From the NCBI RefSeq assembly GCF_003790525.1, contig NZ_CP033635.1: DNA of 64,000 nucleotides. One strand, written 5' to 3'. The notes under the pieces were generated by a model. The model was not told the origin of the DNA and searched no databases. It worked only from the letters and a program-made list of their open reading frames with translations. Made by a program: the position numbers and the translations under genes. Of the stretch, positions 280 to 41,255 are shown one piece after another. Every line of letters begins with the position of its first letter. Positions within the stretch are counted from its first letter, which is position 1. This DNA comes from Escherichia coli (lineage in GTDB: Bacteria; Pseudomonadota; Gammaproteobacteria; Enterobacterales; Enterobacteriaceae).

Positions 280-1239
280 TTACGCGTAACCGTAGCTCAT
301 CAGGCGCTGATAACGACGATTTTTTAAATCTTCAGTGCTTAACACGTCGAGATCGGCCAGATCCGCCAGCAGTTGCGCTTTCAACGATGCCGCCATCGCT
401 TCCGGGTTACGATGAGCGCCGCCCAGCGGTTCCGGGATGATGGAGTCGATCAGTTTCAGCTCTTTCAGGCGCGGAGCGATGATACCCATCGCTTCAGCCG
501 CCAACGGCGCTTTGTCGGCGCTCTTCCACAGAATGGACGCGCAACCTTCCGGCGAGATAACGGAATAGGTGCTGTATTGCAGCATATTCACTTTATCGCC
601 CACGCCAATCGCCAGCGCACCACCAGAACCACCTTCACCGATAACGGTACAAATAGTCGGTACGCTAAGGCGAGACATTTCACGCAGGTTGCGTGCAATG
701 GCTTCAGACTGACCGCGCTCTTCTGCGCCCACGCCCGGATAAGCCCCCGGGGTGTCGATAAAGGTGATGATAGGCATTTTAAAACGTTCAGCCATTTGCA
801 TCAGACGCAGTGCTTTGCGGTAACCTTCTGGCGCTGGCATACCAAAGTTACGGCGAATTTTTTCTTTGGTTTCACGACCTTTTTGATGACCAATGATCAT
901 CACCGGACGACCATCGAGACGGGCGATACCACCGACGATAGCTTTATCGTCTGCATACGCGCGGTCGCCAGCCAGTTCGTCAAATTCATCAAATGCCAGG
1001 CGAACGTAATCCAGGGTATAAGGACGCTGTGGATGGCGTGCCAGTTGCGCAATCTGCCATGCACCGAGATCGGCGAAGATTTTACGCGTCAGTTCTACGC
1101 TTTTTTCACGCAGACGATGCACTTCTTCATCGATGTTAATATCCAGTTTCTCATCCTGGCGGCTAACCGCAGTCAGAGAATCGATTTTCGCTTCCAGCTC
1201 TGCAATCGGCTGTTCAAAATCAAGGAAATTCAGACTCAT
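280..1239 (-). CDS. accA: Acetyl-CoA carboxylase carboxyltransferase alpha subunit
   Basis: 319-aa [25 protein letters not shown]..., recognised as AccA; conserved position after dnaE. Confidence 0.95.
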
Positions 1240-1251
1240 AGTATTCCTGTA

Positions 1252-4200
1252 TTAGTCAAACTCCAGTTCCACCTGCTCCGAACCAATGAGGCCACGGAGA
1301 TCGTTTAATAAACGATCGCTCGGAGAGACACGCCACGTCGCGCCAAAACGCAACCGCGCGCGTGCATCCGCCCTCTGATAGTAGAGATGTACTGGAATTG
1401 TCCCAGAGCGGTGGGGTTCCAGAGACTGACGGAGTCGGTTTAAAAGCTGGTCATCAATTTGCCTGTCCGTCAGCGAGATAGCAAGCCCGCGAGCATATTT
1501 TTCCCGGGCTTCGTCAATATCCATCACTTCGCGAGCGGTCATTTTAAGCCCACCGCTGAAGTCATCAAAGCTGACCTGTCCGCTGACGATAAGTATGCGG
1601 TCTTTTTCCAGCAATTGCTGGTATTTATCCAGGGCGTCAGTAAACAACATCACTTCCAGCCGCCCGGAACGGTCATCCAGCGTGCAGATACCGATACGAT
1701 TGCCGCGCTTGGTGACCATAACCCGCGCAGCAACAACGAGCCCCGCAGCCGTGATGACTTTACCACGTTCTGTCGGGTGCATGTCTTTCAGCCTTATGCC
1801 TCCGACATAACGCTCAATCTCTTTTAAATACTGGTTGATAGGGTGTCCCGTCAGGTACAGACCTAACGTTTCACGTTCCCCATCTAATACCACCTGCTCC
1901 GGCCACGGTTGGCAGCTGGCGTAGGATTGTTCAATTTGTTCCGGCTCTTCTGCCAGCACGCCGAACATATCGGCCTGACCGATGGCTTCCGCTTTTGCGT
2001 GTTGATCAGCCGCTTTTAACGCATCGCCCAGCGAGTTCATCAACGCCGCGCGGTGTGGCCCAAGACGGTCAAACGCCCCGGACATGATCAATTTTTCCAG
2101 CACTCGCCGGTTTAACTTTTTGGTGTCGGTTCGGGCGCAGAGATCAAACAGTTCGCGGAAGTAGCCGCCTTTATTACGGGCTTCGATGATGGCCTCAATC
2201 GGACCTTCACCGACCCCTTTGATCGCGCCAATACCATACACGATTTCGCCGTCGTCGTTGACGTGGAAATGGTAAAGACCGGAGTTTATATCTGGTGGCA
2301 GGATTTTCAGCCCCATCCGCCAGCACTCATCCACCAGGCCCACCACCTTCTCGGTGTTGTCCATATCGGCGGTCATTACCGCCGCCATAAACTCCGCCGG
2401 ATAGTGCGCTTTCAGCCATAACGTTTGATATGACACCAAAGCATAGGCCGCAGAGTGCGATTTGTTAAATCCGTAACCCGCGAATTTCTCCACCAGGTCG
2501 AAGATTTTCATCGCCAGTTCGGCGTTAATTCCGTTCTTTTCTGCACCTTCAGCAAATACAGAACGCTGCTTAGCCATCTCTTCCGGCTTTTTCTTACCCA
2601 TCGCACGACGCAGCATATCCGCGCCACCGAGGGTATAACCAGAAAGCACCTGGGCAATCTGCATGACCTGTTCCTGATACAGGATGATGCCGTAGGTTGG
2701 CTCCAGTACCGGTTTCAGGCTTTCATGCTGCCACTGCACGTCCGGATAGGAGATCTCTTCGCGACCATGTTTACGGTCGATAAAGTTATCCACCATCCCT
2801 GACTGCAACGGACCAGGGCGGAACAGTGCCACCAGTGCGATCATATCTTCGAAGCAGTCAGGTTGCAGACGCTTGATCAGGTCCTTCATGCCGCGCGATT
2901 CAAGCTGGAATACCGCCGTGGTTTCCGAGCGTTGCAGCATGTCGAAGCTTTTCTTGTCATCCAGCGGGATCGCGGCGATATCCAGCGGCGGCTCGCCATT
3001 CTTCGCCCGCCGCTTGTTGATCATCTCCAGCGCCCAGTTGATGATGGTGAGCGTACGCAAACCGAGGAAGTCGAACTTCACCAGCCCGGCGTATTCAACG
3101 TCGCTTTTATCAAACTGGGTGACCGGATGTTTGCCCTCTTCATCGCAGTAAAGCGGCGCAAAATCGGTAATTTTGGTCGGTGCGATAACCACCCCACCGG
3201 CGTGCTTACCGGCGTTACGGGTGACCCCTTCCAGTTTGCGCGCCATGTCGATCAGCGCCTTAACTTCTTCATCCGCTTCGTAGATTTCCGGCAGCTGCGG
3301 CTCGGCTTCAAACGCTTTCGCCAGCGTCATCCCCGGATCGGGCGGGATCAGTTTCGAGATACGATCGACAAAGCCGTACGGATGGCCCAGCACGCGGCCT
3401 ACGTCGCGGATCACCGCTTTCGCCGCCATCGTACCGAAGGTGATAATCTGCGATACCGCATCGCGACCGTACATGTCCGCCACATGTTCGATAACCTGGT
3501 CGCGTTTCTCCATACAGAAGTCAACGTCGAAGTCAGGCATGGAGACACGTTCCGGGTTAAGGAAACGTTCGAACAGCAGGTCAAATTCCAGCGGATCGAG
3601 GTCGGTGATTTTCAGCGCGTAGGCCACCAGTGAACCCGCACCGGAGCCACGGCCTGGCCCTACCGGTACGCCGTTATCTTTCGACCACTGGATAAATTCC
3701 ATAACGATGAGGAAGTAACCCGGGAAGCCCATCTGGTTGATAACCTGAAGTTCAGTCTCCAGACGCTCGTCATATTCCGGGCGGCGCTTCAGACGTTCTT
3801 CCTCGTCAGGGAATAAAAAGGCCAGACGCTCTTCCAGGCCTTCTTTTGCACGCTTGACCAGATAATCTTCGGTGCTCATGTCCCCGGTCGGGAATTGCGG
3901 CAAGAAGTATTCACCCAGACGCACAGTTACGTTACAACGTTTGGCTATCTCAACGGTGTTGGCAAGGGCTTCGGGAATGTCGGCAAAAAGCTCGCACATC
4001 TCCTCTTCGCTACGCATATATTGCTGCGGCGAATAGTTACGCGGGCGTTTAGGATCGTCGAGGGTAAAGCCGTCGTGGATCGCGACGCGGATTTCGTGTG
4101 CGTCAAAGTCGCTGCTGTCGATAAAGCGCACGTCGTTGGTCGCCACAACGGGCAAACCGCGTGATTCCGCCAGTTCCACCGCAGCGTGCAGATAGCTTTC

Positions 4201-4734
4201 TTCGTCCGGCCTGCCGGTGCGGATCAGCTCGAGAAAATAGCGATCCGGGAAGTGTTCTTCATAAAACGCGACACACTCATCTACCAGCGCGCTGTTACCA
4301 CGCAAAAGACTGCGTCCAACGTCGCCCATGCGCCCGCCGGAAAGAAGGATCAACCCTTCATTTAATTCGATAAGCCAGTCGCGATCGATGATCGGCCCGG
4401 CGGCACCGTACCCGCGCTGATACGCTTTTGAGATCAGCAACGTCAGATTCTGATAGCCGGTATTGTTCGCCGCCAGCACCGTCAGGTGGGTTAACTCATC
4501 ACCCAGCAGGTCGCACTGGACGTTAAAATCCGCCCCGACGATGGGCTTAATCCCTGCGCCATGTCCCGCTCCGTAGAACTTCACCAGACCGCAAAGGTTG
4601 GTGAAATCGGTGATCGCCAGTGCTGGCATACCCAACGCCGCCGCCTTTTTTACCAGCGGTGCGGTTTTGGCCAGGCCATCGATCATCGAGTAGTCGCTGT
4701 GCACCCGCAGGTGTACGAAACGTGGTTCAGACAT
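1252..4734 (-). CDS. dnaE: DNA polymerase III alpha subunit
   Basis: 1160-aa ORF with PHP-domain N-terminus ([23 protein letters not shown]...), recognised as DnaE. Confidence 0.97.
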
Positions 4735-4770
4735 CTTCAGATTCCGGTTTACTTAATCTCGACACAAGAA

Positions 4771-5367
4771 TCAGGACGCAAGTCCCAGTGCGCGTTTGAC
4801 AGGCCCAAAGCTGCGCCGATGGTGTTCGGTCGCGCCGTGTTCAGCCAGTTTTTCCAGATGAAAAGCGGTTGGATACCCTTTGTGTTGGGCAAAACCATAT
4901 TGCGGGAAAACAATATCCAGCGCCGCCATTTCGGCGTCACGCGTCACTTTCGCCAGGATAGACGCGGCACTGATTTCCGGTACGCGGCTATCGCCTTTCA
5001 CCACAGCCATCGAAGGCATCGGTAATTTCGGGCAGCGGTTACCATCAATCAACACATATTCCGGCGCAATATGCAGTCCAGCGACGGCACGCTGCATCGC
5101 CAGCATGGTCGCATGTAAAATATTCAGTTCGTCGATTTCGTGAGGTTCCGCGCGGCCCAGACTCCAGCTCAACGCTTTCTCTTTGATCTCTTCACAGAGC
5201 GCCAGACGGCGTTTTTCGCTCAGCTTTTTGGAATCATTCAGCCCGGCAATTGGGCGCGCCGGGTCAAGGATTACAGCAGCGGTAACCACCGCGCCAACCA
5301 ACGGCCCGCGTCCAACTTCATCCACACCCGCAACCAGCTGCGTGTGTGGATAAACAAATTCGATCAT
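4771..5367 (-). CDS. rnhB: Ribonuclease HII
   Basis: 198-aa [31 protein letters not shown]..., RNase HII motif; overlaps lpxB stop by 4 nt. Confidence 0.95.
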
Positions 5368-6512
5368 TGTGCTAACTCCAGAACGGCTTGTGCCGCCTGC
5401 TCATCGGCATTGCAGCGGATCTGCTGATGCAGTTCACGGAAGGTATCGTGCATCGCGTGACTGGTTTTCCCGTTCGCCAACAGCGGTAACAGCGCCGCAG
5501 CCAGTTTTTGCGGCTCACACTCTTCCTGCAATAACTCTTTGACTAACTCTCTGCCCGCCAGCAAATTTGGCAGCGAGACATACTCGGTTTTCACCAGCCG
5601 CTTCGCCAGCCAGAAGGTAAAAGGCTTCATGCGATATCCCACCACCATCGGGCATTTCGCCAGCATGCACTCCAGGGCTGCCGTACCCGACGCCAGTAGC
5701 GCCGCATCACTGGCGACCATCGCCTCACGGCCCATTCCATCCAGCAGATGAACAGCAAGGTCCGGTGCGACTTCAGCTTTGATACGCTCAAACTGCTCGC
5801 GGCGTTTGGCATTCACCAGCGGCACCACGATCTCGAGATCGGGATATGTCTGACGCAAAAGCTGGGCCGTTTTCAGGAAATCGGCACTAAGCATTTCGAC
5901 TTCTGCACCACGGCTGCCCGGCAACAATGCCAGACAGTGGGCATCGTAAGGGATACCCAGCACATCACGGGCACCATTTTTATCTGGATCTAATGGCATG
6001 GCATCAGCCATGGTATGACCGATAAAGCGGCACGGTACGTTGTATTTGTCATAAAACGCCTTTTCGAAAGGCAGAAATGCGAGCACCAGATCGGTGGCTC
6101 TGCCTATTTTGAAAACGCGTTTCTGTCGCCACGCCCAGACGGACGGACTAACGTAATGAATGGTTTTGACACCCTGCTTTTTGAGGTTACCTTCAAGAGT
6201 AATATTGAAGTCTGGCGCATCAATACCGACAAAAACATCTGGCTTCAGTTCGCCAAAACGCTTTGTCAGATCGGCACGAATATGCAGTAAGCGACGCAGA
6301 CGCCCGAGCACTTCAACAATGCCCATCACCGCCAGCTCTTCCATTTCGTACCAGGCTTCGCAGCCTTCGGCTTGCATTCGTGGCCCGGCAACACCAACAA
6401 AGCGGGCATTGGGCACACGTTCTTTCAGAGCACGGATTAAACCGGCCCCCAGGATATCGCCGGAGGTTTCTCCGGCGACCAGGGCAATCGTTAATGGACG
6501 CTGTTCAGTCAT
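5364..6512 (-). CDS. lpxB: Lipid-A-disaccharide synthase
   Basis: 382-aa ORF recognised as LpxB; lies in the lpxD-fabZ-lpxA-lpxB cluster. Confidence 0.95.
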
Positions 6513-7300
6513 TAACGAATCAGACCGCGCGTTGAGCGTGCAAAGAAATCGGTAAAGGCTTTCACTTCCGGATATGTTTCCGCCAGTTCAGCAATTTCCG
6601 GTTTCACTTCATCGAGCGTTTTACCGCTACGATAAATCAGCTTATACGCATTGCGGATAGCGGTAATCGCCTCACGGCTGAATCCGCGGCGCTTCAGCCC
6701 TTCGATATTGACACCGAACGGCGTTGCGTGGTTACCCTGCGCAATGACATAAGGAGGGACGTCCTGCGCCACACCGGAGCAGCCGCCAACCATCACATGC
6801 GCACCAATGATGCAGAACTGATGGACTGCGGTCATGCCGCCGATGATCGCGAAGTCGTCAACCGATACGTGACCCGCCAGCGTTGCGTTGTTGGCGAGGA
6901 TGCAGCGGTTACCTACCGTACAATCGTGCGCAATGTGCGCATTGATCATCAGTAAGTTGTCGCTGCCCACCTTCGTCAATCCACCGCCCTGGACTGTGCC
7001 ACGATGAATGGTGACGCTTTCGCGAATGCGGTTACGATCGCCGATTTCCACGCGGGTCGGTTCGCCAGCATATTTCAGATCCTGGTTAACTTCGCCGATG
7101 GAGGCGAACTGATAAATCTCATTATCGCGGCCAATTTTAGTATGACCATTCACGACAACGTGAGATTTCAGTACGGTACCCTCACCAATTTCGACATGGG
7201 GTCCAACGATACAAAAAGGACCAATGTGAGCGTTCGCGCCAATCGACGCGCCCTCTTCCACAATGGCGGTTGGATGCACAAAGGCGGATTTATCAATCAC
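6512..7300 (-). CDS. lpxA: UDP-N-acetylglucosamine acyltransferase
   Basis: 262-aa ORF with left-handed beta-helix hexapeptide repeats, recognised as LpxA. Confidence 0.95.
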
Positions 7301-7303
7301 GTA

Positions 7304-7759
7304 TCAGGCCTCCCGGCTACGAGCACACATCATCGTTGCTTCGCAAACTACTTTACCGTCGACCAGAGCAACCCCTTTAAAACGGGTCAGGCCGCGGCGC
7401 GTTTTTTCGAAAGTGACTTCCATGATCATTTGATCGCCAGGCACGACCGGGCGCTTAAAGCGCGCTTCGTCAATACCGGCGAAGTAGTACAGCTCACCCG
7501 GTTCCAGTTTTCCTACGCTTTTAAACGCCAGAATACCTGTTGCCTGTGCCATTGCTTCCAGAATCAGCACACCCGGGAAAATCGGTTTTCCAGGGAAATG
7601 GCCCTGGAAGAATGGCTCATTGACAGAGACATTTTTTACTGCGCGCAGAAAACGACCTTCTTCAAAATCCAGCACGCGATCCACCAGTAAGAACGGGAAA
7701 CGGTGCGGCAGAAGTTCTAAAATCTCTTCAATCTGCAGAGTATGAGTGTTAGTAGTCAA
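7304..7759 (-). CDS. fabZ: 3-hydroxyacyl-ACP dehydratase FabZ
   Basis: ORF track gives 182 aa; known 151-aa FabZ begins at the internal TTG ([29 protein letters not shown]...), so the start is trimmed to 7759. Confidence 0.88.
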
Positions 7760-7863
7760 GATACTCTTCCTGTCAAAATATAAGAAACGACAATAATAAC
7801 ACGGCCTGCCGCAATCGTAAGAATGAGACAGGCCGTAAAGTTTGGCGAACAAAAGATGGAACG

Positions 7864-8889
7864 TTAGTCTTGTTGATTAACCTTGCGCTCAAGCGATTTC
7901 AGACGCTTGCTCATGTCATCAATGTTCATCACCAGTGCAGCGGTTTTGCGCCAGACTTTGTTGGGTTGCAGCGGAATGCCTGAGGAATAGACGCCTGGTT
8001 CAGTGATGGGACGCATCACCATACCCATGCCCGTAACCGTCACTTTGTCGCATATTTCCATATGCCCGTTGATTACGCTGGCTCCGCCGATCATGCAGTA
8101 ACGACCAATTTTCAGGCTGCCCGCCATAATGACGCCACCGGCAACTGCCGTATTGTCGCCAATCACGACGTTATGTGCAATCTGGCACTGGTTATCAATG
8201 ATCACACCATTGCCAATAACAGTGTCATCCAGCGCACCGCGATCGATGGTAGTACATGCGCCGATCTCCACGCGATCGCCAATAATTACGCGACCTATCT
8301 GCGGGATCTTCACCCAGTTACCACGATCGTTGGCATAACCAAAGCCGTCTGCGCCTACCACTGTTCCGGACTGGATCAGGCAATTCTGACCGATCTGGAT
8401 CTCATGGTAAATGGTTACGTTCGCCCAGAGACGCGAACCTGCACCGATTTTGCTGTTTTTACCTACGAAGCAACCGGCACCGATAATCACGTTATCGCCC
8501 AGTTCAACGCCGGACTCAATCACCGCGTTAGCGCCAATTGAGACGTTGTTACCCAGCTTCGCCGTCGCGTCAATCACTGCACTGGGTGCAATGTTCTGCG
8601 CGGGCTGCGGCGTGGTATCTAAAATTTGCGCCATGCGCGCGTAAGTCAGGTAGGGATTCTTCACTACCAGCGCGGCACTTTTCGCGAAAGGAAGATCGTC
8701 CTGGGTCATGACAACCGCGGACGCCTGGCACAAGCCTAAATGCTCACGGTATTTTGGGTTAACCATGAACGTAATGTGACCTGTTTGTGCAGATTGCATG
8801 GACGCAACGCCGGTGATGACGATATCGCCATCACCGTGTAGTTCTGCATCCAACTGCTGCGCTAAATCAGCCAGTCGAATTGAAGGCAT
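7864..8889 (-). CDS. lpxD: UDP-3-O-(3-hydroxymyristoyl)glucosamine N-acyltransferase
   Basis: 341-aa [34 protein letters not shown]..., recognised as LpxD. Confidence 0.95.
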
Positions 8890-11961: not shown

Positions 11962-13314
11962 TCATAACCGAGAGAAATCATTGAAAAGTGCAAGCCCCAT
12001 TAACAGCACCAGCAGAATCGAGCCAATGCGATAACAAAAGTCTTGAACCCGCTCGGATACCGGTCCGCCCTTGATCTTTTCGATCGCAAGGAACAGCAGA
12101 TGCCCCCCGTCAAGTACGGGCAACGGAAACAGGTTAATTATCCCTAAGTTCACGCTAATAAGCGCAAGAAACGGCAGGTAATAAACAACCCCGAGTTCCG
12201 CTGTCATCCCAGCCCCCTTGGCGATAGAGATCGGCCCACTGAGGTTGTTCAGTTTCACATCACCGGTGATCAATTTTCCCAGCATACTGACCGTCAGCTT
12301 CATCAGCTGCCACGTTTTGTCCGTGGCTTCGACAATGGCGTTGAACGGCCCATACTGGCGTACAACTTTATACTCATCTGGCAAAGGAATGACTTTCGGC
12401 TCAATACCGACAAAACCAATCGCTTTACCATTACCCGGTTTACTCTCCGGGATTAATGTCAAAGACAAAGGACTCCCCTGCCTTTCGATTTCTAACGCTA
12501 AGGATTTACCCGGGTTATCCCGGACAAGCATCACAAAGGTCACCCACTGCGTTAAGGGCTGACCATCGACTTTAACGATCCTGTCGCCTGCTTGCAAACC
12601 TGCCTTGCTTGCCGCCGAGTTTGGCTGCACATTTTCCAGTACAGGTTCAATTTGCGGCCCACGAGGACGAATCCCCAGCGAAGTTACCGGATCTTCTTTA
12701 TCAGGCTCAAACGCCCAGTGACGTAAATCGAGCTTTACATCCCGCCGTTGGTCGCTGCCAAATGGCGCTACCGTAATGGTGGTGCTTTCATCGCCAATTT
12801 TATCGACCAACTGCAAACGCACGGCATCCCAATCAGGCGTTTCGATACCATCTACGGCTTTTAGTTCCGTACCTGGTGCAATTTGTGCTTCCGCAGCTAT
12901 CGAATTGGCTGCTATTTCACCAACCACCGGACGTACGCCAGGCACACCAATAATAAAAACCAGCCAGTAGGCAAAGATAGCAAAAATGAAGTTTGCAACC
13001 GGACCTGCGGCAATAATCGCCGCTCGTTGGCCGACAGATTTATTATTGAAGGCATGGTGGCGGAGTTCCGGAACGACCGGTTCTGCGCGCTCATCCAGCA
13101 TTTTGACATAACCGCCCAACGGGATCAGGGCGATAACATATTCGGTGCCGAGCTTATCAGTTCGCCGCCAGAGCGCCTTACCAAACCCTATTGAGAAACG
13201 CTCAACGCGAACACCACAACGCCGGGCAACCCAGAAATGACCAAATTCATGCACGGTGATAAGTACACCCAGTGCAACGATGAACGAAGCCAAATCCCAG
13301 AGAAAACTCAGCAT
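11962..13314 (-). CDS. rseP: Regulator of sigma-E protease RseP (site-2 protease)
   Basis: ORF track gives 465 aa; known 450-aa RseP begins at internal Met ([28 protein letters not shown]...), HExxH motif present; start trimmed to 13314. Confidence 0.92.
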
Positions 13315-33964: not shown

Positions 33965-35245
33965 ATGAGTAAGTCTGAAAATCTTTACAGCGCAGCGCGC
34001 GAGCTGATCCCTGGCGGTGTGAACTCCCCTGTTCGCGCCTTTACTGGCGTGGGCGGCACTCCACTGTTTATCGAAAAAGCGGACGGCGCTTATCTGTACG
34101 ATGTTGATGGCAAAGCCTATATCGATTATGTCGGTTCCTGGGGGCCGATGGTGCTGGGCCATAACCATCCGGCGATCCGCAATGCCGTGATTGAAGCCGC
34201 CGAGCGTGGTTTAAGCTTTGGTGCACCAACCGAAATGGAAGTGAAAATGGCGCAACTGGTGACCGAACTGGTCCCGACCATGGATATGGTGCGCATGGTG
34301 AACTCCGGCACTGAAGCGACGATGAGCGCCATCCGCCTGGCCCGTGGTTTTACCGGTCGCGACAAAATTATTAAATTTGAAGGTTGTTACCACGGTCACG
34401 CTGACTGCCTGCTGGTGAAAGCCGGTTCTGGCGCACTCACGTTAGGCCAGCCAAATTCGCCGGGCGTTCCGGCAGATTTCGCCAAACATACCTTAACCTG
34501 TACTTATAACGATCTGGCCTCTGTACGCGCCGCGTTTGAGCAATACCCGCAAGAGATTGCCTGTATTATCGTCGAGCCGGTGGCAGGCAATATGAACTGC
34601 GTTCCACCGCTGCCAGAGTTCCTGCCAGGTCTGCGCGCGCTGTGCGACGAATTTGGCGCGTTGCTGATCATCGATGAAGTGATGACCGGTTTCCGCGTAG
34701 CGCTAGCTGGCGCACAGGATTATTACGGCGTAGTGCCAGATTTAACCTGCCTCGGCAAAATCATCGGCGGTGGAATGCCGGTAGGCGCATTCGGTGGTCG
34801 TCGTGATGTAATGGATGCGCTGGCCCCGACTGGTCCGGTATATCAGGCGGGTACGCTTTCCGGTAACCCGATTGCGATGGCAGCCGGTTTCGCCTGTCTG
34901 AATGAAGTCGCACAGCCGGGCGTTCACGAAACGCTGGATGAGCTGACAACACGTCTGGCAGAAGGTCTGCTGGAAGCGGCAGAAGAAGCCGGAATTCCGC
35001 TGGTGGTAAACCACGTTGGCGGCATGTTCGGTATTTTCTTTACCGACGCCGAGTCCGTGACGTGCTATCAGGATGTGATGGCCTGTGACGTGGAACGCTT
35101 TAAGCGTTTCTTCCATATGATGCTGGACGAAGGTGTTTACCTGGCACCGTCAGCGTTTGAAGCGGGCTTTATGTCCGTGGCGCATAGCATGGAAGATATC
35201 AATAACACCATCGATGCTGCACGTCGGGTGTTTGCGAAGTTGTAA
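33965..35245 (+). CDS. hemL: Glutamate-1-semialdehyde 2,1-aminomutase
   Basis: 426-aa [29 protein letters not shown]..., recognised as HemL. Confidence 0.95.
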
Positions 35246-35251
35246 TGATTT

Positions 35252-35274
35252 TGCCTCGCCCACCGGGCGAGGCA
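35252..35274. terminator. Hairpin between convergent hemL and fhuB
   Basis: TGCCTCGCC-CACCG-GGCGAGGCA immediately after the hemL stop, followed by ATTCTATT. Confidence 0.4.
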
Positions 35275-35279
35275 TTCTA

Positions 35280-37262
35280 TTAACGGCTCTGCTTTCTCAA
35301 CAAATAGATAAAATATGGCGCGCCGATAAAGGTCGACAGCAGCCCCGCCGGGATCTGGAATGGAAACAATACCATCCGCCCACACCAGTCAGCGAACACC
35401 AGCAGTAAACCACCCACCAGCGCCGAAATTACGATGTGTGGCATCGTCCGTCGAAAGCCCATCATCCGCGCAATATGCGGTGCCATTAAACCAACAAAAC
35501 TCAACGGTCCAATGGTCATTGTCGCAGTCGCTGTCAGGCAAGCCGCTAACAGCAGCAGCGCAATTCGCGTCGGCGTCAGCGCCATTCCTACGGCTCGTGC
35601 GGTATCACCGCCCAGCGGTAAAATGGTCAGCCAGCGGCGGCACAGCGGGGTAATCGCCAGCAAAATTACCATCACAATTCCCGTGCGCCAGACCTGCGCC
35701 TCGGTCGCGTTGTAGGTCGAACCGGAAATCCAGGTCAGAACTTGCGCCATTCGCGGGTCACCACTTGCCTGCAACATCATCAAAAGCATGGTGAACGCGG
35801 TACTTAACGCCATCCCCGCCAGTAACATGCGGTGTGGGGAAAATCCACCGCGTCCGGCGGCGATCATAATGATCAACAGCGTCACCGCCGCCCCGAGGCT
35901 GCCCGCGGGTAACAGCCAGCCAAAGGCATTACCCGGCACCAAAAACAGCATCAACACCACACCAAACGCCGCGCCGGAACTAATCCCCAGCACTTCCGGG
36001 CTTGCCATCGGGTTTCCGGTCAGCCGCTGAATAATACAGCCCGCCACTGCCAGCATGATGCCCGCAAACAGTGCCGCCATAATTCGCGGCCAGCGCCAGG
36101 GCATTAAATCATCGAGCAGCGCCCCGCTCGCCCACGTCCAGCCGTGCGCATCACGACCAAACGACAGCGCCACCACCACAGCCATCAACAGCAGCACGCC
36201 GCCCGCGAGGGCAAACGCCAGCACGTGTTGGCGTTCAGTCTCGACACGATCGTTGACCTTCATATCCGGCGCGCTAATGCTGCGTAAACGCGGCAGCAAC
36301 CACAGTAGCAGCGGCGCACCGATCAACGCAGTGACCGAACCGGTGGACACTTCCATCCACACGCGAGTCAGCCAGAGGATGATTTGATCGGAAAGCCAGA
36401 GGATCAGCGCACCAATCAGCGACGCCAGCATCAACCTTGGTAGCAGACGCCGCGCCCCCAGCATTTTCGCCAGCAGTGGCGCGAACAAACCGATAAAGCC
36501 GATAATCCCCACCGCGTTCACCAGCAGCGCACTGATGACAATCGCCAGCGACAACGCCGCCAGACGCGCCAGCGACAAGGCCAGCCCGAGATTGCGCGCC
36601 ACTCCATCATCAAGCCCCATCAGAGTTAACGGGCGAAGTAGCAATAACGTCAGCATCACGCCGCCCAGCAGCTGCGGCCATAAACGCTCAACGCCGCCCC
36701 AGTCGGTTTGCGTCAGCGTTCCGGTGCTCCACAGGAACATGCTTTGCAGTTGGTCATGATGGAAGATAACCAGTAACTGATTGATTGCGCCGCAATAAAG
36801 GCTCACTACCAGCCCCGCGAGGATCAGCGTTACCGGCGAAAGCCGTTTCCCCCACGCGACGCCAAAGACGATTAAGCCAACCACACAAGCCCCTGCCAAT
36901 GCAGCAAACTGGCTCGCCATAGCACCTGGGATCGCCCAGAGCGTGGTGACGGTAATCCCCAGTTGCGCGCCTGTTGCAACGCCCAACGTCGTCGGTTCCG
37001 CCAGCGGGTTACGCAGCACTTGCTGAAACAGCACGCCCACCAGCCCCAGGCCCGCGCCCACCAGCAGCGAAATCGCCAGACGCGGCAACAAGCTGTAGTG
37101 AAAAATCATCTGCTCGATGACGTCAATATCCGGCGACCAGGCGGCCTGCGCCCACTGGCTGCGCGGCAGCGCCTGCGAGAAGTTCATCCAGGTCAACGCC
37201 GCAGCAGCAACCACCAGCAGCACCAGCAATAACACCGGAAAAAGCGCAATTCGTTTACTCAC
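35280..37262 (-). CDS. fhuB: Ferric hydroxamate ABC transporter permease
   Basis: 660-aa duplicated-permease ORF recognised as FhuB; overlaps fhuD stop. Confidence 0.95.
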   Translation of the reverse strand: MSKRIALFPVLLLVLLVVAAAALTWMNFSQALPRSQWAQAAWSPDIDVIEQMIFHYSLLPRLAISLLVGAGLGLVGVLFQQVLRNPLAEPTTLGVATGAQLGITVTTLWAIPGAMASQFAALAGACVVGLIVFGVAWGKRLSPVTLILAGLVVSLYCGAINQLLVIFHHDQLQSMFLWSTGTLTQTDWGGVERLWPQLLGGVMLTLLLLRPLTLMGLDDGVARNLGLALSLARLAALSLAIVISALLVNAVGIIGFIGLFAPLLAKMLGARRLLPRLMLASLIGALILWLSDQIILWLTRVWMEVSTGSVTALIGAPLLLWLLPRLRSISAPDMKVNDRVETERQHVLAFALAGGVLLLMAVVVALSFGRDAHGWTWASGALLDDLMPWRWPRIMAALFAGIMLAVAGCIIQRLTGNPMASPEVLGISSGAAFGVVLMLFLVPGNAFGWLLPAGSLGAAVTLLIIMIAAGRGGFSPHRMLLAGMALSTAFTMLLMMLQASGDPRMAQVLTWISGSTYNATEAQVWRTGIVMVILLAITPLCRRWLTILPLGGDTARAVGMALTPTRIALLLLAACLTATATMTIGPLSFVGLMAPHIARMMGFRRTMPHIVISALVGGLLLVFADWCGRMVLFPFQIPAGLLSTFIGAPYFIYLLRKQSR

Positions 37263-38996: not shown

Positions 38997-41255
38997 TTAG
39001 AAACGGAAGGTTGCGGTTGCAACGACCTGACGTTCTGCGCCCCAGAAGCAGCCATAGGTGTTAAAGCAGCTGGCGACGTATTCACGATCGAACAGGTTGT
39101 TGACATGCAGCGCCACGTTGGAGCCAGCCATGCCGACTCGCGCCAGATCATAACGCACTAACGCATCCACGACCGTATAACTTCCCACTTTAAAGGAGTT
39201 AGCCGGATCACCATAGCTGGAGCCAGTATAACGACCACCGGTGCCCAGCGTCAGACCTGAAAGCGGACCGTCAAAGAAGGTATAGTCAGCCCACAGCGAA
39301 GCCATGTGTTTTGGCACCTGTGCAGGCGTATTGCCTTTATAGGTAGTGTCGGTGGTGTATTCCGCATCGGTGTAAGTATAAGAACCTACTACGTTAACAC
39401 TCGCCGACAGCGCCGCTTTTGCTTCCAGTTCTACACCACGAGCGCGAATCTCACCGCCTTCAATCGAGAAATTGGGATTATTCGGATCCGCCATCAGGTT
39501 GTTGGTTTTGGTAAGCTGATACAGTGCGCCCGTCAGCACAATTGGGCGATCTTCCGGCACATATTTCACACCAACTTCATACTGTTTGCCTTTCGAAGGT
39601 GCAAACAGATCACCGTTTGCATCTGTCAAAGATGCTGGCTCAAACGACTCACTGTAGCTGAAGTAAGGCGTTACCCCGTTGTCGAACAGGTAGTTTACGC
39701 CACCACGCCAGGTGAACTGTTTGTCATCACGATCGGATTTATTACCGTAATCACGGTTGAAAGATGACTGTTCCGCCCAGTCATAGCGACCACCCAGAGT
39801 CACCAGCACCTTATCCCACTGCGCCTGATCCTGAACATACAGACCGGTTTGTTTCTGTTTAAGCAAAACGCGGTATGGGCCAGACGGATCCGGGTGAGCA
39901 CCAAAATCAAAGTCACTACGGTCTAAATTATAGATATCAGACGGTGCAACGGAACCGGCGTAACCGAACCAGGAGTCAATATCATTACGCATACGCATAA
40001 AGTCAACGCCGGTCAGCAGAGTGTGTTCAACCGAGCCGGTTGCGAATTTACTTTGCAACTGAGTATCAACAGAGAAGTTTTCTAATTTCTCATTATCGAT
40101 AACGTACTGACGAGTCAGTGTATGATTCCATTCTGACTGCGGGATACTTAAACATGGACTCGCCTTGAGTGCATCGTCGTCTTTGGTATACAGCGGATCC
40201 GAGCACATGCCGTAGCCATATACGCTCTTTTGCGAGACTTTATTTTGCGCAAAGCGCAGGTTCTGACGCACAGTAAAGGTGTCGTTAAATTCGTGATCGA
40301 AGCTGTAGCCCACCATCTTCTCATTACGAGAATAGGTGTTGTTCTTCGCCCCTTCATTAAAGTCTGTCGGCAGACGCTTACCGTTCGGCAGCGGCTCAAC
40401 GGTTCCCTCTTTCGGCAACCAGCCGTAATAACCGGTTTCCGGTTCGTTCTGGAAGTAAGAAAGGAAAGTGAAATTGGTTTTATCATCCGGGCGCCAGGTG
40501 AACGCTGGAGCAATAGCATAACGCTGCTCTTCTGCCCCCTTCTGCTGAGCATTGGCTGAACGCGCAATACCAGTCAGACGATAAGAGTAAACGCCGTCAT
40601 CATCCAGCGCATCACTGAAGTCAAAACCAGTCTGGAACAGGCTGTCAGTACCGGCTTTAAACTGAATTTCTTTCAGCGGTTCTGTAGTCGGGCGCTTGCT
40701 GACCATGTTCAACAGGCCGCCAGGGCTGCTTTTCCCGTACAGCACGGATACCGGACCACGCATGATTTCAGCGCGCTCCAGCATATACGGATCGATAACT
40801 GCATCGTTATAGAAGTTGCCCTGCATCTTCAGGCCATTCAGATAGTTGTTCTGGCTTTGGCCGTCAGCGGCAAATCCGCGGATGATCAGGTAATCGTAAG
40901 TGTTGGATGCGCCACGAGTTCCCACGGCAACGCCAGGAGTGTAGCTAAGAGCTTCTTTTACCGACTTCGGCTGATGCAGCGCCATCTCTTCGGCGGTCAC
41001 AACAGAAATAGACTGTGGCACTTTTTGAATCGGCGTATCGGTTTTAGTGCCGGTAGCGGACTGTCGCGCCGCAATAGTTGCAGCTGGCCCCCATGCGCTT
41101 TCTTGCGGCGCAGGTGCAGCGGTAACGGTGATAGTGTCTTCTTTCGGTTCAACCGCTGCCTGTGCATAAACAGACATGCCGCTAACCGCTGTGGCTACTA
41201 CAACTGCGATTTTACGCAGTGAGTGTTTTGGCTGAGCAGTTTTGGAACGCGCCAT
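38997..41255 (-). CDS. fhuA: TonB-dependent ferrichrome outer membrane receptor FhuA (phage T1/T5/phi80 receptor)
   Basis: 752-aa ORF with signal peptide, TonB-box region, plug and beta-barrel ending in F; N- and C-terminal regions match FhuA while central predicted-loop segments differ from the K-12 allele as I recall it (see findings). Confidence 0.93.
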   Translation of the reverse strand: MARSKTAQPKHSLRKIAVVVATAVSGMSVYAQAAVEPKEDTITVTAAPAPQESAWGPAATIAARQSATGTKTDTPIQKVPQSISVVTAEEMALHQPKSVKEALSYTPGVAVGTRGASNTYDYLIIRGFAADGQSQNNYLNGLKMQGNFYNDAVIDPYMLERAEIMRGPVSVLYGKSSPGGLLNMVSKRPTTEPLKEIQFKAGTDSLFQTGFDFSDALDDDGVYSYRLTGIARSANAQQKGAEEQRYAIAPAFTWRPDDKTNFTFLSYFQNEPETGYYGWLPKEGTVEPLPNGKRLPTDFNEGAKNNTYSRNEKMVGYSFDHEFNDTFTVRQNLRFAQNKVSQKSVYGYGMCSDPLYTKDDDALKASPCLSIPQSEWNHTLTRQYVIDNEKLENFSVDTQLQSKFATGSVEHTLLTGVDFMRMRNDIDSWFGYAGSVAPSDIYNLDRSDFDFGAHPDPSGPYRVLLKQKQTGLYVQDQAQWDKVLVTLGGRYDWAEQSSFNRDYGNKSDRDDKQFTWRGGVNYLFDNGVTPYFSYSESFEPASLTDANGDLFAPSKGKQYEVGVKYVPEDRPIVLTGALYQLTKTNNLMADPNNPNFSIEGGEIRARGVELEAKAALSASVNVVGSYTYTDAEYTTDTTYKGNTPAQVPKHMASLWADYTFFDGPLSGLTLGTGGRYTGSSYGDPANSFKVGSYTVVDALVRYDLARVGMAGSNVALHVNNLFDREYVASCFNTYGCFWGAERQVVATATFRF

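Follow-up and report, generated by a model that had tools for sequence, protein, structure and literature searches.

The SMS-3-5 fhuA allele of Escherichia coli is a recombination mosaic built around an old core with divergent surface loops

The window, a stretch of 64,000 nucleotides from Escherichia coli contig NZ_CP033635.1, carries fhuA at the head of the fhuACDB operon, which follows mrcB in the locus mrcB-fhuACDB-hemL. The gene product is 100% identical to that of E. coli SMS-3-5 fhuA (WP_000124395.1), and the allele is therefore named here after that strain; it is longer than FhuA of K-12 (752 vs 747 residues). Over residues 1-752 it matches the NCBIfam equivalog NF007465 ('ferrichrome porin FhuA') with 1448.3 bits, where the cutoff is 803, and the identical protein has precomputed matches to the Pfam domains PF07715 and PF00593. 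An AlphaFold2 model of SMS-3-5 FhuA, which was built on a 150-sequence alignment and kept in place of a version built on 8 sequences (rejected at pLDDT 25.7), reached a pLDDT of 91.0 and a pTM of 0.90 and displays 22 barrel strands plus the plug domain. The best PDB matches to this model were FhuA structures (TM 0.96-0.98, rmsd 1.5-2.5 Å), with a TM of 0.98 for 1BY5.

Residues 1-109 are the same as in K-12, including the TonB box DTITV at residues 40-44. The residues reported in the 1998 crystal-structure papers to be in contact with ferrichrome (R81, G99, Q100, Y116, Y244, W246, Y313, Y315, F391 and F693) are conserved in 10 of 10 cases relative to K-12. For Y244 and W246 a role as ferrichrome sites is confirmed in the literature. 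Likewise, all four disulfide cysteines are kept (C318-C329 and C692-C698 in K-12 mature numbering). Since the ligand pocket, the plug, the membrane strands and the disulfides are constant, ferrichrome uptake should persist with an altered outer surface, and SMS-3-5 fhuA is predicted to be a functional allele.

Comparison with K-12 divides the gene into five blocks (Table 1), whose nucleotide divergence from 5' to 3' is 0.8, 10.0, 1.9, 27.9 and 2.1% (chi2 = 262, p = 1e-55). Identity to K-12 in sliding windows was 98-100% in mrcB, in fhuC and at both ends of fhuA and dropped to 41% in the core. Nearly all changes in the block at 40479-41000 are synonymous and only 8 amino-acid differences result, whereas the core at 39426-40265 holds 82 of the 90 differences of the whole protein. 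In L3, which contains the ferrichrome-contact residues Y277 and W279, none of 32 residues differs from K-12. Strain UID2309220009 carries a chimeric fhuA that is SMS-like on its 5' side and K-12-like on its 3' side, with the switch just downstream of the block at 40266-40478. Between SMS-3-5 and an ST648 isolate, the SfsA, ThpR and HemL proteins are identical, while FhuA is 73% identical. SMS-3-5 fhuA is a recombination mosaic, in which ordinary E. coli ends and an ordinary L3 region surround an old core. The first-pass annotation had located divergence at 39450-40210, a span that is real but slightly too narrow. Its statement that the plug matches K-12 holds only for the protein; the block at 40479-41000 (plug and strands 1-5), with its 10% DNA divergence, had been missed.

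Table 1. Position of the fhuA gene, its blocks and its divergent loops in the window (pS and pN, synonymous and nonsynonymous divergence; all comparisons are with K-12).
Feature	Residues	Position	Strand	Description
fhuA CDS	752 aa + stop	38997..41255	(-)	Intact ferrichrome TonB-dependent transporter/phage receptor (ORF)
5' conserved block	1-85	41001..41255	(-)	Signal peptide, TonB box, plug start; 2/255 nt differ; pS 0.03; E. coli background level
Divergent block 1	86-259	40479..41000	(-)	Plug, strands 1-5; 52/522 nt differ (10.0%); pS 0.38, pN 0.021
Conserved block, recombination junction zone	260-330	40266..40478	(-)	Strand 5, L3, strand 6; 4/213 nt differ
Hypervariable core	331-610	39426..40265	(-)	Strands 7-16, L4-L8; 229/822 nt differ (27.9%); pS 0.64-0.70
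3' conserved block	611-752	39000..39425	(-)	Strands 16-22, L9-L11, C730-C736 disulfide; 9/426 nt differ; 0 amino-acid changes; pS 0.09
Loop L4	351-378	40122..40205	(-)	Cys351-Cys368 pair; 22/28 positions differ
Loop L5	431-460	39876..39965	(-)	SMS type GYAGSVAPSDIYNLDRSD...; 16/32 positions differ
Loop L6 apex and adjoining strand ends	495-508	39732..39773	(-)	9 differences
Loop L7	540-553	39597..39638	(-)	8/16 positions differ; D509 (EL7 tip) -> N
Loop L8 apex (DPNNPNF)	590-596	39468..39488	(-)	4/7 positions differ; F557 -> N, E554 -> N

At the protein level SMS-3-5 and K-12 FhuA are 88.0% identical, and 82 of the 90 differing columns fall within K-12 mature residues 304-572. When the alignment was mapped on the topology of the confident model, 75 of the 90 differences were extracellular (OR 8.9, p = 7e-18), which bears out the earlier proposal that amino-acid divergence is localised in the loops used by phages. 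The differing share was 24.7% for extracellular positions vs 2.5% for the plug, 4.6% for membrane strands and 2.1% for periplasmic turns. Long strands were split here into extracellular and membrane parts by a 10-residue rule and not by coordinates; a test that used only published loop ranges (Table S1 of Lewis et al. 2023) agreed, with differences in 51 of 147 loop columns vs 39 of 581 columns elsewhere (OR 7.4, p = 1e-16). The main loop changes are confined to L4-L8. L1, L3 and L9-L11 are the same as in K-12, which reflects recombination boundaries near residues 331 and 610, and L2 is changed at one position. In L4 a 6-residue insertion brings the two cysteines 17 residues apart, vs 11 in K-12, so that the altered spacing noted in the first-pass annotation was confirmed by alignment; in the same loop K-12 Y325 is replaced by K, and PADKGH stands opposite QSEWNH. 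The four internal peptides quoted earlier from the 752-residue protein all translate exactly as written: CSDPLYTKDDDALKASPC in L4 (40152-40205), GYAGSVAPSDIYNLDRSDFDFGAHPDPSGPYRVLL (39861-39965), FEPASLTDANGDLF (39603-39644) and DPNNPNFSIEG (within 39450-39500). The apex region of L6 reads EQSSFNRDYGNKSD in the SMS-3-5 allele vs DQESLNRVAGTTDK in K-12.

FhuA is a classic entry point for the phages T1, T5 and phi80, for colicin M, microcin J25 and albomycin. The T5 protein pb5 contacts EL4-EL11, and most hydrogen bonds are given by EL4, EL5 and EL8 (PMC9586334). These three loops are all changed in the SMS-3-5 allele (Table 1), and the pb5-contact loop residues Y325, D509 and F557 of K-12 are all replaced. 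Among the loops, L8 is the one whose deletion affects T5 most, and SO1-like phages no longer infect without it; resistance to MccJ25 in natural isolates is associated with fhuA sequence divergence (PMC10926693). An altered ligand and phage sensitivity of the SMS-3-5 allele is plausible, judging from its loop sequences. On the other hand, Degroux et al. described that pb5 binding tolerates some changes of contact residues and that the T5-resistant E. coli EPEC and Shigella strains which they tested had unchanged pb5-contact residues; they suggest superinfection exclusion or capsule behind such resistance. Sensitivity in the wild may therefore depend mainly on factors other than FhuA contacts. 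A search of the literature returned no data on the SMS-3-5 allele and no phage or colicin phenotype of E2-type FhuA, the cluster discussed below. An outbreak of a T1-like phage (PMC13035648) was considered as a FhuA case and rejected, since it concerns LptD.

The L8 apex NNPNFSI is one small new detail of the SMS-3-5 allele among the alleles examined. Compared with the nearest alleles it shows 9 nucleotide changes in 5 codons, giving 4 replacements and 1 synonymous change in near-identical surroundings; the 21-nt patch is AATAATCCCAATTTCTCGATT. None of 71 further loci with fhuA, taken from 65 species representatives and 6 additional E. coli strains, contains the motif, and the E2-like alleles of ATCC 25922, O145 and ST131 carry NGSLFSV at this position. 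The 729-aa allele type also has an Asn-Pro here, but copying of the apex from it was rejected as its codons differ, which excludes direct conversion. In a set of complete genomes that is biased in its sampling, the exact allele was present in 181 of 5,426 and the NNPNFSI motif likewise in exactly 181. An identical or near-identical protein is encoded on at least 1000 contigs, and the best 120 matches were all near-identical E. coli proteins. By core identity to the SMS-3-5 allele, about 20% of the complete E. coli genomes fall at or above 80% (the three higher bands, with allele types in the 80-95% bands assigned from identity alone) and about 68% in the 60-80% band, which includes K-12-like alleles.

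Across genera, L4-L5 sequences group by type and not by genus, with a distance of 0.38 between types vs 0.10-0.17 within them. The SMS type (n=29) occurs in Escherichia, Citrobacter, Silvania, Leclercia, Lelliottia, Enterobacter, Kosakonia, Phytobacter, Atlantibacter, Klebsiella indica and Buttiauxella; the K-12 type (n=8) occurs in Escherichia, Salmonella, Enterobacter, Leclercia, Buttiauxella and Phytobacter, its loops recurring for instance in Salmonella, E. whittamii and Enterobacter. In the hypervariable region the SMS-3-5 protein is 84% identical to Citrobacter youngae vs 70% to K-12, and for L5 these values are 92% vs 62%. For each of the two L4/L5 types there is another Escherichia species that carries it with a pS like that of the flanks, and each type also extends to several further genera. 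The lineages thus predate their present carrier species and cross species borders, as is characteristic of a trans-species polymorphism.

Such coexistence might be neutral, if weakly constrained loops were shuffled by recombination and sorted by population structure, without balancing selection. This would agree with a dN/dS below 1 throughout and with L6-L8, where sequences do not sort clearly into types and all taxa differ from one another to about the same degree. However, within types the pN of L4 and L5 across genera is only about 0.09-0.12 while pS is saturated, so that these loops are constrained and purifying selection acts within a type. In addition, drift alone would hardly leave two discrete L4/L5 types across several genera and at least three Escherichia species, and the variable loops coincide with the mapped phage-contact loops. 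We therefore regard a neutral origin as unlikely.

Between SMS-3-5 and K-12, pS is 0.05-0.13 in the flanking genes hrpB, mrcB, fhuC, fhuD, fhuB and hemL vs 0.64-0.70 in the core; the core lineage and that of K-12 separated no later than the enteric genera diverged. A recent horizontal import of the core from another genus, e.g. Citrobacter, into an E. coli backbone would explain why the hypervariable region is 80-84% identical at the protein level to Citrobacter, Kosakonia, Enterobacter vonholyi and Lelliottia, and frequent exchange between species after speciation was favoured by Wang et al. (10.1101/320069). Yet core pS to every sampled Citrobacter, Kosakonia, Enterobacter, Silvania and Leclercia is 0.59-0.85 vs 0.59-0.67 in fhuC and fhuD, which served as the flank baseline between genera. 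Because core pS is as high as flank pS, no sampled genus is a recent donor, and none was found among 67 species representatives. An mrcB comparison with Citrobacter sp. On2M was set aside, as its pN of 0.49 reflects misalignment or a non-orthologous flank. Inter-genus pS of 0.6-0.8 is near saturation, so that a lineage as old as the genera and an older one look alike and only comparisons within Escherichia are informative. Here, the nearest non-coli relative of SMS-3-5, Escherichia sp. E1V33, has a pS of 0.18-0.35 in the hypervariable region vs 0.19-0.30 in the flanks, and the corresponding values for K-12 and E. whittamii are 0.21-0.32 vs 0.15-0.28. Recent import is accordingly quite improbable.

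The first-pass annotation had attributed the loop divergence to diversifying selection, but recent phage- or bacteriocin-driven point mutation in the SMS-3-5 loops is very doubtful, even though amino-acid changes cluster in L4-L8, the L8 apex is rich in replacements and the scans of Chen 2006 and Petersen 2007, as cited in 10.1101/320069 and 10.1101/2021.09.21.461324, listed fhuA as positively selected: the synonymous divergence of the same segment is saturated and extends over plug and strands, dN exceeded dS in no 30-codon window of the pairwise comparisons (Nei-Gojobori sliding window), dN/dS of the whole gene is 0.16 (0.05-0.22 across all pairs), the loop sequences recur in other genera at low pN, and positive selection fits at most the small L8 patch and a few residues of the L4 apex.

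We consider it probable that SMS-3-5 fhuA is a functional allele of the old and widespread E2 lineage, a recombination mosaic whose type is kept by purifying selection, with phages and bacteriocins likely favouring rare types. The core (residues 331-610) and residues 86-259 would descend from this old lineage and would have been imported or retained by recombination. Purifying selection would hold the loops within a lineage, while the ferrichrome pocket, plug, strands and disulfides stay constant. Several FhuA surface types coexist in E. coli as well as in other genera, most likely because phages, colicin M and microcins docking on the loops give an advantage to the type that is rare at the time; homologous recombination would carry types between strains. 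The mosaic structure, the age and trans-generic spread of the lineage, the concentration of amino-acid changes in loops and the conserved ligand pocket are shown by the comparisons, whereas the role of phages and bacteriocins as selective agent and an altered sensitivity due to the SMS-3-5 allele are inferred. More tentatively, the L4/L5 types may have arisen before Escherichia, Salmonella, Citrobacter and Enterobacter separated and form a true trans-species balanced polymorphism that does not stem from recent exchange, and the NNPNFSI apex of L8 may be a recent phage-escape change.

The FhuA surface type should affect which phages and bacteriocins act on a strain, and thereby bears on the host range in phage therapy and on the use of microcins and sideromycins. 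As about 20% of the complete E. coli genomes fall in the bands closer to the SMS-3-5 core, contact maps and loop-deletion phenotypes obtained with K-12 FhuA should not be assumed to be transferable.

Wang et al. 2018 (bioRxiv 10.1101/320069) described FhuA sequence clusters (E1-E4) together with local recombination and indels at loop apices; variable loop-apex regions with local recombination were also reported in 2021 and 2025 (10.1101/2021.09.21.461324 and PMC12175518). The principle is thus already published and the SMS-3-5 allele is a common known type, so that the locus is a worked example and not a discovery. The main text of 10.1101/320069 does not mention SMS-3-5, but the allele carries the hallmark of cluster E2, an L4 insertion relative to E1 (K-12), and from this insertion it appears to belong to E2. 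Like E2 and other mosaic types, it is variable at loop apices, incongruent with its flanks and locally recombined; its L8 (NNPNFSI) differs from that of E2-like alleles (NGSLFSV). While the papers on mosaic evolution favour frequent recent exchange, the synonymous sites of SMS-3-5 point to old lineages.

With K-12 FhuA (P06971; PDB 1BY3/1BY5/2FCP/8A8C/8B14) the SMS-3-5 protein shares gene, locus and fold (TM 0.98, rmsd 1.5 Å), and the signal peptide and first 76 mature residues are identical; it differs in the 6-residue insertion of L4, the changed loops L4-L8 and the saturated synonymous sites of the core. The L4/L5 surface type is common to SMS-3-5 and FhuA of C. youngae, other Citrobacter, Silvania, Kosakonia and Leclercia. 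C. youngae is 92% identical in L5 and 78% in L4, and Kosakonia sp. S29 even has in common with SMS-3-5 the longer L4 with a DALK motif. In these genera, however, the gene ends are genus-specific and L6-L8 differ from SMS-3-5, and the saturated synonymous sites exclude a recent common origin. The E. coli phage receptors OmpC, OmpF, OmpA and LamB likewise combine a conserved barrel with discrete loop-apex types that recombination shuffles, and their variable regions coincide with phage binding sites; FhuA differs from them as a TonB-dependent transporter with a plug domain, which in SMS-3-5 is covered by a second, synonymous-only divergent block.

The fhuA gene of the window, the first gene of fhuACDB with mrcB upstream of it, was identical across the whole gene to that of E. 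coli SMS-3-5 (NC_010498.1). FhuA encoded here matched the NCBIfam equivalog NF007465 (1448 bits, cutoff 803). An AlphaFold2 model built from a 150-sequence alignment had 22 barrel strands (pLDDT 91, pTM 0.90) and could be superimposed on crystal and cryo-EM structures of FhuA at TM scores of 0.96-0.98 and an rmsd of 1.5-2.5 Å. The protein is full-length and apparently functional.

The protein shared 88.0% identity with K-12 FhuA (747 aa). All peptides quoted in the first-pass annotation were found, with exact coordinates, and the proposed change in the L4 cysteine spacing was confirmed: the cysteines lie 17 residues apart (CSDPLYTKDDDALKASPC) versus 11 in K-12 (CSDPANAYSKQC), because of a 6-residue insertion relative to K-12. 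The alignment contained 90 differing columns, 82 of which fall within K-12 mature residues 304-572, and the changed loops were L4 to L8 only. Topology was taken from the model, counting the 10 strand residues closest to each periplasmic turn as membrane-embedded, a rule of thumb for dividing the long strands; on this basis 24.7% of extracellular positions differed, compared with 2.5% in the plug, 4.6% in membrane strands and 2.1% in periplasmic turns (75 of the 90 differences extracellular, OR 8.9, p = 7e-18). A second, independent test used published K-12 loop ranges alone (L3 247-273, L4 318-339, L5 394-419, L10 640-654 and L11 689-701, Lewis et al. 2023 Table S1; EL7 501-516 and EL8 546-564, van den Berg et al. 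2022). Here, 51/147 loop columns differed versus 39/581 elsewhere (OR 7.4, p = 1e-16), with zero differences in the published ranges of L3, L10 and L11. The amino-acid divergence from K-12 is localised to loops by both tests, as had been proposed.

Positions of the features in the window, in FhuA and in the fetched fhuA loci (L-numbers)
Feature	Sequence or numbering	Position	Strand	Remark
fhuA CDS	window	38997-41255	minus	752 aa
L8 apex NNPNFSI (within DPNNPNFSIEG)	window	39468-39488	minus	
DNA block	fhuA residues	1-85		0.8% divergent from K-12
DNA block (plug block)	fhuA residues	86-259		10.0% divergent from K-12
DNA block	fhuA residues	260-330		1.9% divergent from K-12
DNA block (core, hypervariable segment)	fhuA residues	331-610		27.9% divergent from K-12
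DNA block	fhuA residues	611-752		2.1% divergent from K-12
Difference block, L4	K-12 mature	317-353		29 differences
Difference block	K-12 mature	369-371		3 differences
Difference block, L5	K-12 mature	388-427		20 differences
Difference block, L6	K-12 mature	457-470		9 differences
Difference block, L7	K-12 mature	503-512		8 differences
Difference block	K-12 mature	536-542		3 differences
Difference block, L8	K-12 mature	554-560		5 differences
Chimeric fhuA	UID2309220009 (L007)	6001-8244		
Chimera switch point	SMS-3-5 (L002)	~6950		~residue 317
fhuA with in-frame stop	MOD1-EC7003 (L023)	3001-5241		ORF 593 aa
Fimbrial operon	ST131, NZ_OX637964.1 (L004)	877-5781		~5 kb
IS621 element	ST648 isolate (L008)	12192-13172		IS110 family
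fhuB-hemL intergenic	K-12 (L001)	12445-12603		157 bp
fhuB-hemL intergenic	SMS-3-5 (L002)	11976-12011		34 bp
fhuB-hemL intergenic	window	~35240-35280		

At the DNA level fhuA was a mosaic, its blocks diverging unequally from K-12 (chi2 = 262, p = 1e-55). The plug, said earlier to match K-12, does so at the protein level, with a handful of residue changes, but not at the DNA level. Between the window strain and K-12, pS was 0.05-0.13 in the flanking hrpB, mrcB, fhuC, fhuD, fhuB and hemL, rising to 0.38 for the plug block and to 0.64-0.70 for the core (Nei-Gojobori estimates, saturated above about 0.6). Flanking genes of K-12 and Salmonella arizonae differed by a pS of 0.56-0.63; core pS between the two E. 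coli strains is of this between-genera order. None of the 30-codon windows sliding along fhuA had dN > dS against K-12, and whole-gene dN/dS was 0.16, so the divergence is old and, outside the loops, filtered by purifying selection. The high core pS and the lack of such windows show that the bulk of the divergence is not a recent burst of loop substitutions, and the diversifying selection suggested in the first-pass annotation does not hold as a recent process.

The surface types were followed in a species scan with one genome per bacterial species, in which fhuA was recovered at 67 loci. Together with the E. coli strains, these fell into L4-L5 groups that followed surface type rather than genus, both types being present in several genera. 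The type of SMS-3-5 (motifs ...CSDPLY..SPC..PQS.W.HTL and GYAGSV.PSDIYNLDR.D) was carried by Escherichia sp. E1V33, many Citrobacter, Silvania, Lelliottia, Leclercia sp. UBA7405, Enterobacter vonholyi, Kosakonia, Phytobacter ursingii, Atlantibacter, Klebsiella indica and Buttiauxella warmboldiae. The K-12 type (...CSDP-ANA-YSKQCAALAPADKGHYL and GYDDSVPLLDLYNPV.TD) was found in E. whittamii, Salmonella arizonae, Enterobacter asburiae, Leclercia adecarboxylata, Buttiauxella massiliensis and Phytobacter massiliensis. L4-L5 distance was 0.38 between and 0.10-0.17 within types; pN was 0.09-0.12 across genera within one type and about 0.23 between types, the same within E. coli as between genera. 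In L6-L8 of these alleles no two-type structure was found. Outside the core, Escherichia alleles were mutually 97-100% identical, the 729-aa type excepted. A long L4 with a DALK motif (PIYPTEPDALKTHPC) was common to the Kosakonia sp. S29, SMS-3-5, E1V33 and ATCC 25922 alleles; in most other SMS-type sequences L4 was 3 residues shorter.

No recent donor of the SMS-3-5 core was found among the genera sampled: core pS against Citrobacter, Kosakonia, Enterobacter, Silvania and Leclercia was 0.59-0.85, and their fhuC and fhuD were equally high. The informative age comparisons are those within Escherichia, where pS is unsaturated. SMS-3-5 and E1V33 differed by a pS of 0.18-0.35 in the core and 0.19-0.30 in the flanks, K-12 and E. 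whittamii by 0.21-0.32 and 0.15-0.28, respectively, so that between species each type has diverged to roughly the extent of the remaining genome, while inside E. coli the two types lie a pS of about 0.7 apart. Such a pattern is the mark of allelic lineages that predate the species, and it points to trans-species polymorphism or very old exchange, the conserved ends having later been homogenised by recombination within E. coli.

Exchange within E. coli was seen in UID2309220009, whose fhuA is a chimera, 100% identical to SMS-3-5 up to the switch point and K-12-like thereafter; this point marks a recombination junction just ahead of L4. SMS-3-5 and an ST648 isolate had identical SfsA, ThpR and HemL proteins and flanks of 98-100% identity, while FhuA was just 73% identical. 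Over 5,426 complete E. coli genomes, with frequencies that carry sequencing bias, hypervariable-segment identity to the window allele fell into discrete bands: at least 99% in 181 genomes, 90-95% in 266 and 80-90% in 621 (both known by identity alone), 60-80% in 3,690 (K-12-derived and O157:H7 strains among the examples listed) and no match in 668, which probably include the 729-aa type (strain 789, ST648). Banding was alike in a whole-gene search: ATCC 25922 (93.1%), O145 (93.3%) and ST131 (92.3%) belonged to the 90-95% band, while K-12-like strains stood near 87% and 729-aa alleles near 77-79%. Three fhuA matches were plasmid-borne and not chromosomal, two of the 5,426 genomes had no fhuA match at all, and in E. 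coli 0H18 (NZ_CP081767.1; match H35) an ISAs1-family transposase splits the gene.

The L8 apex sequence DPNNPNFSIEG was absent from the other 71 fhuA-bearing loci fetched (6 further E. coli strains, and 65 species representatives from which the apex motif could be read); the majority of these had DP.GS[FIL][FW]SVEGG. Among the complete genomes the patch occurred in exactly 181, as many as had at least 99% segment identity. It differs from the nearest alleles (E1V33, ATCC 25922, O145) by 9 nucleotides in 5 codons within near-identical surroundings. Copying from L8 of the 729-aa type was rejected by patch comparison; the patch may have arrived by a short conversion, its donor lineage lying outside the sample, or may be a recent change under selection. 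In Escherichia sp. MOD1-EC7003 the in-frame stop lies exactly at the L8 apex (LMADPNGSYFSV*GGEIR), and this receptor appears to be pseudogenised at a phage-critical loop.

Ten residues, which we take to be the ferrichrome contacts of the 1998 structure papers, were all kept in the window FhuA, as were both cysteine pairs, so siderophore uptake should be retained. Y244 and W246 are confirmed ferrichrome sites in the literature. In the T5 complex, most hydrogen bonds to the receptor-binding protein pb5 come from EL4 (8 bonds), EL5 (8) and EL8 (7) (PMC9586334), the loops most changed here. The loop residues named as contacts, Y325, D509 and F557, are replaced by K, N and N, and the K-12 L4 peptide PADKGH by QSEWNH; F115 and Y116, the contacts in the plug, are as in K-12. 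Among isolates of E. coli and Salmonella, resistance to MccJ25 has been linked to natural divergence of the fhuA sequence (PMC10926693), and together with the changed pb5-contact loops this makes altered phage or bacteriocin recognition plausible. Binding of pb5 tolerates some contact changes, and the T5-resistant E. coli EPEC and Shigella strains tested by Degroux et al. showed no difference in pb5-contacting residues; superinfection exclusion or a capsule was suggested as the cause of their resistance.

The surroundings of fhuA also varied. The ST131 genome carries a four-gene fimbrial operon (fimbrial protein, chaperone, usher, fimbrial protein) between mrcB and fhuA that none of the other loci fetched has, those of SMS-3-5 and K-12 included, and the IS621 element of the ST648 isolate lies between fhuB and hemL. 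The length difference of this intergenic region suggests a small insertion in K-12, possibly a repeat element, or a deletion in SMS-3-5.

FhuA clusters E1-E4 of E. coli were defined by Wang et al. 2018 (bioRxiv 10.1101/320069), who located the indels that tell them apart at loop apices (L3, L4, L5, L6, L7 and L10), reported clusters also present in Salmonella, and proposed local recombination over simple positive selection. E2 was described as E1-like with an L4 insertion, an insertion likewise present in the window allele, which would fit E2. Earlier, fhuA had been listed as positively selected (Chen 2006 and Petersen 2007, as cited in that preprint). Follow-up papers generalised the picture of Wang et al. 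to a "mosaic evolution" of outer-membrane proteins and surveyed hypervariable-region types over 3,104 complete genomes (10.1101/2021.09.21.461324; PMC12175518). The finding restates this published phenomenon in a genome itself published. From the first-pass reading, the loop localisation and the plausible consequences for the receptor stand, but recent diversifying selection does not. Our additions are only two: the L8 variant specific to the window allele among those examined, and the synonymous-site evidence for old types, whereas Wang et al. and the follow-up papers suggested frequent recent exchange.
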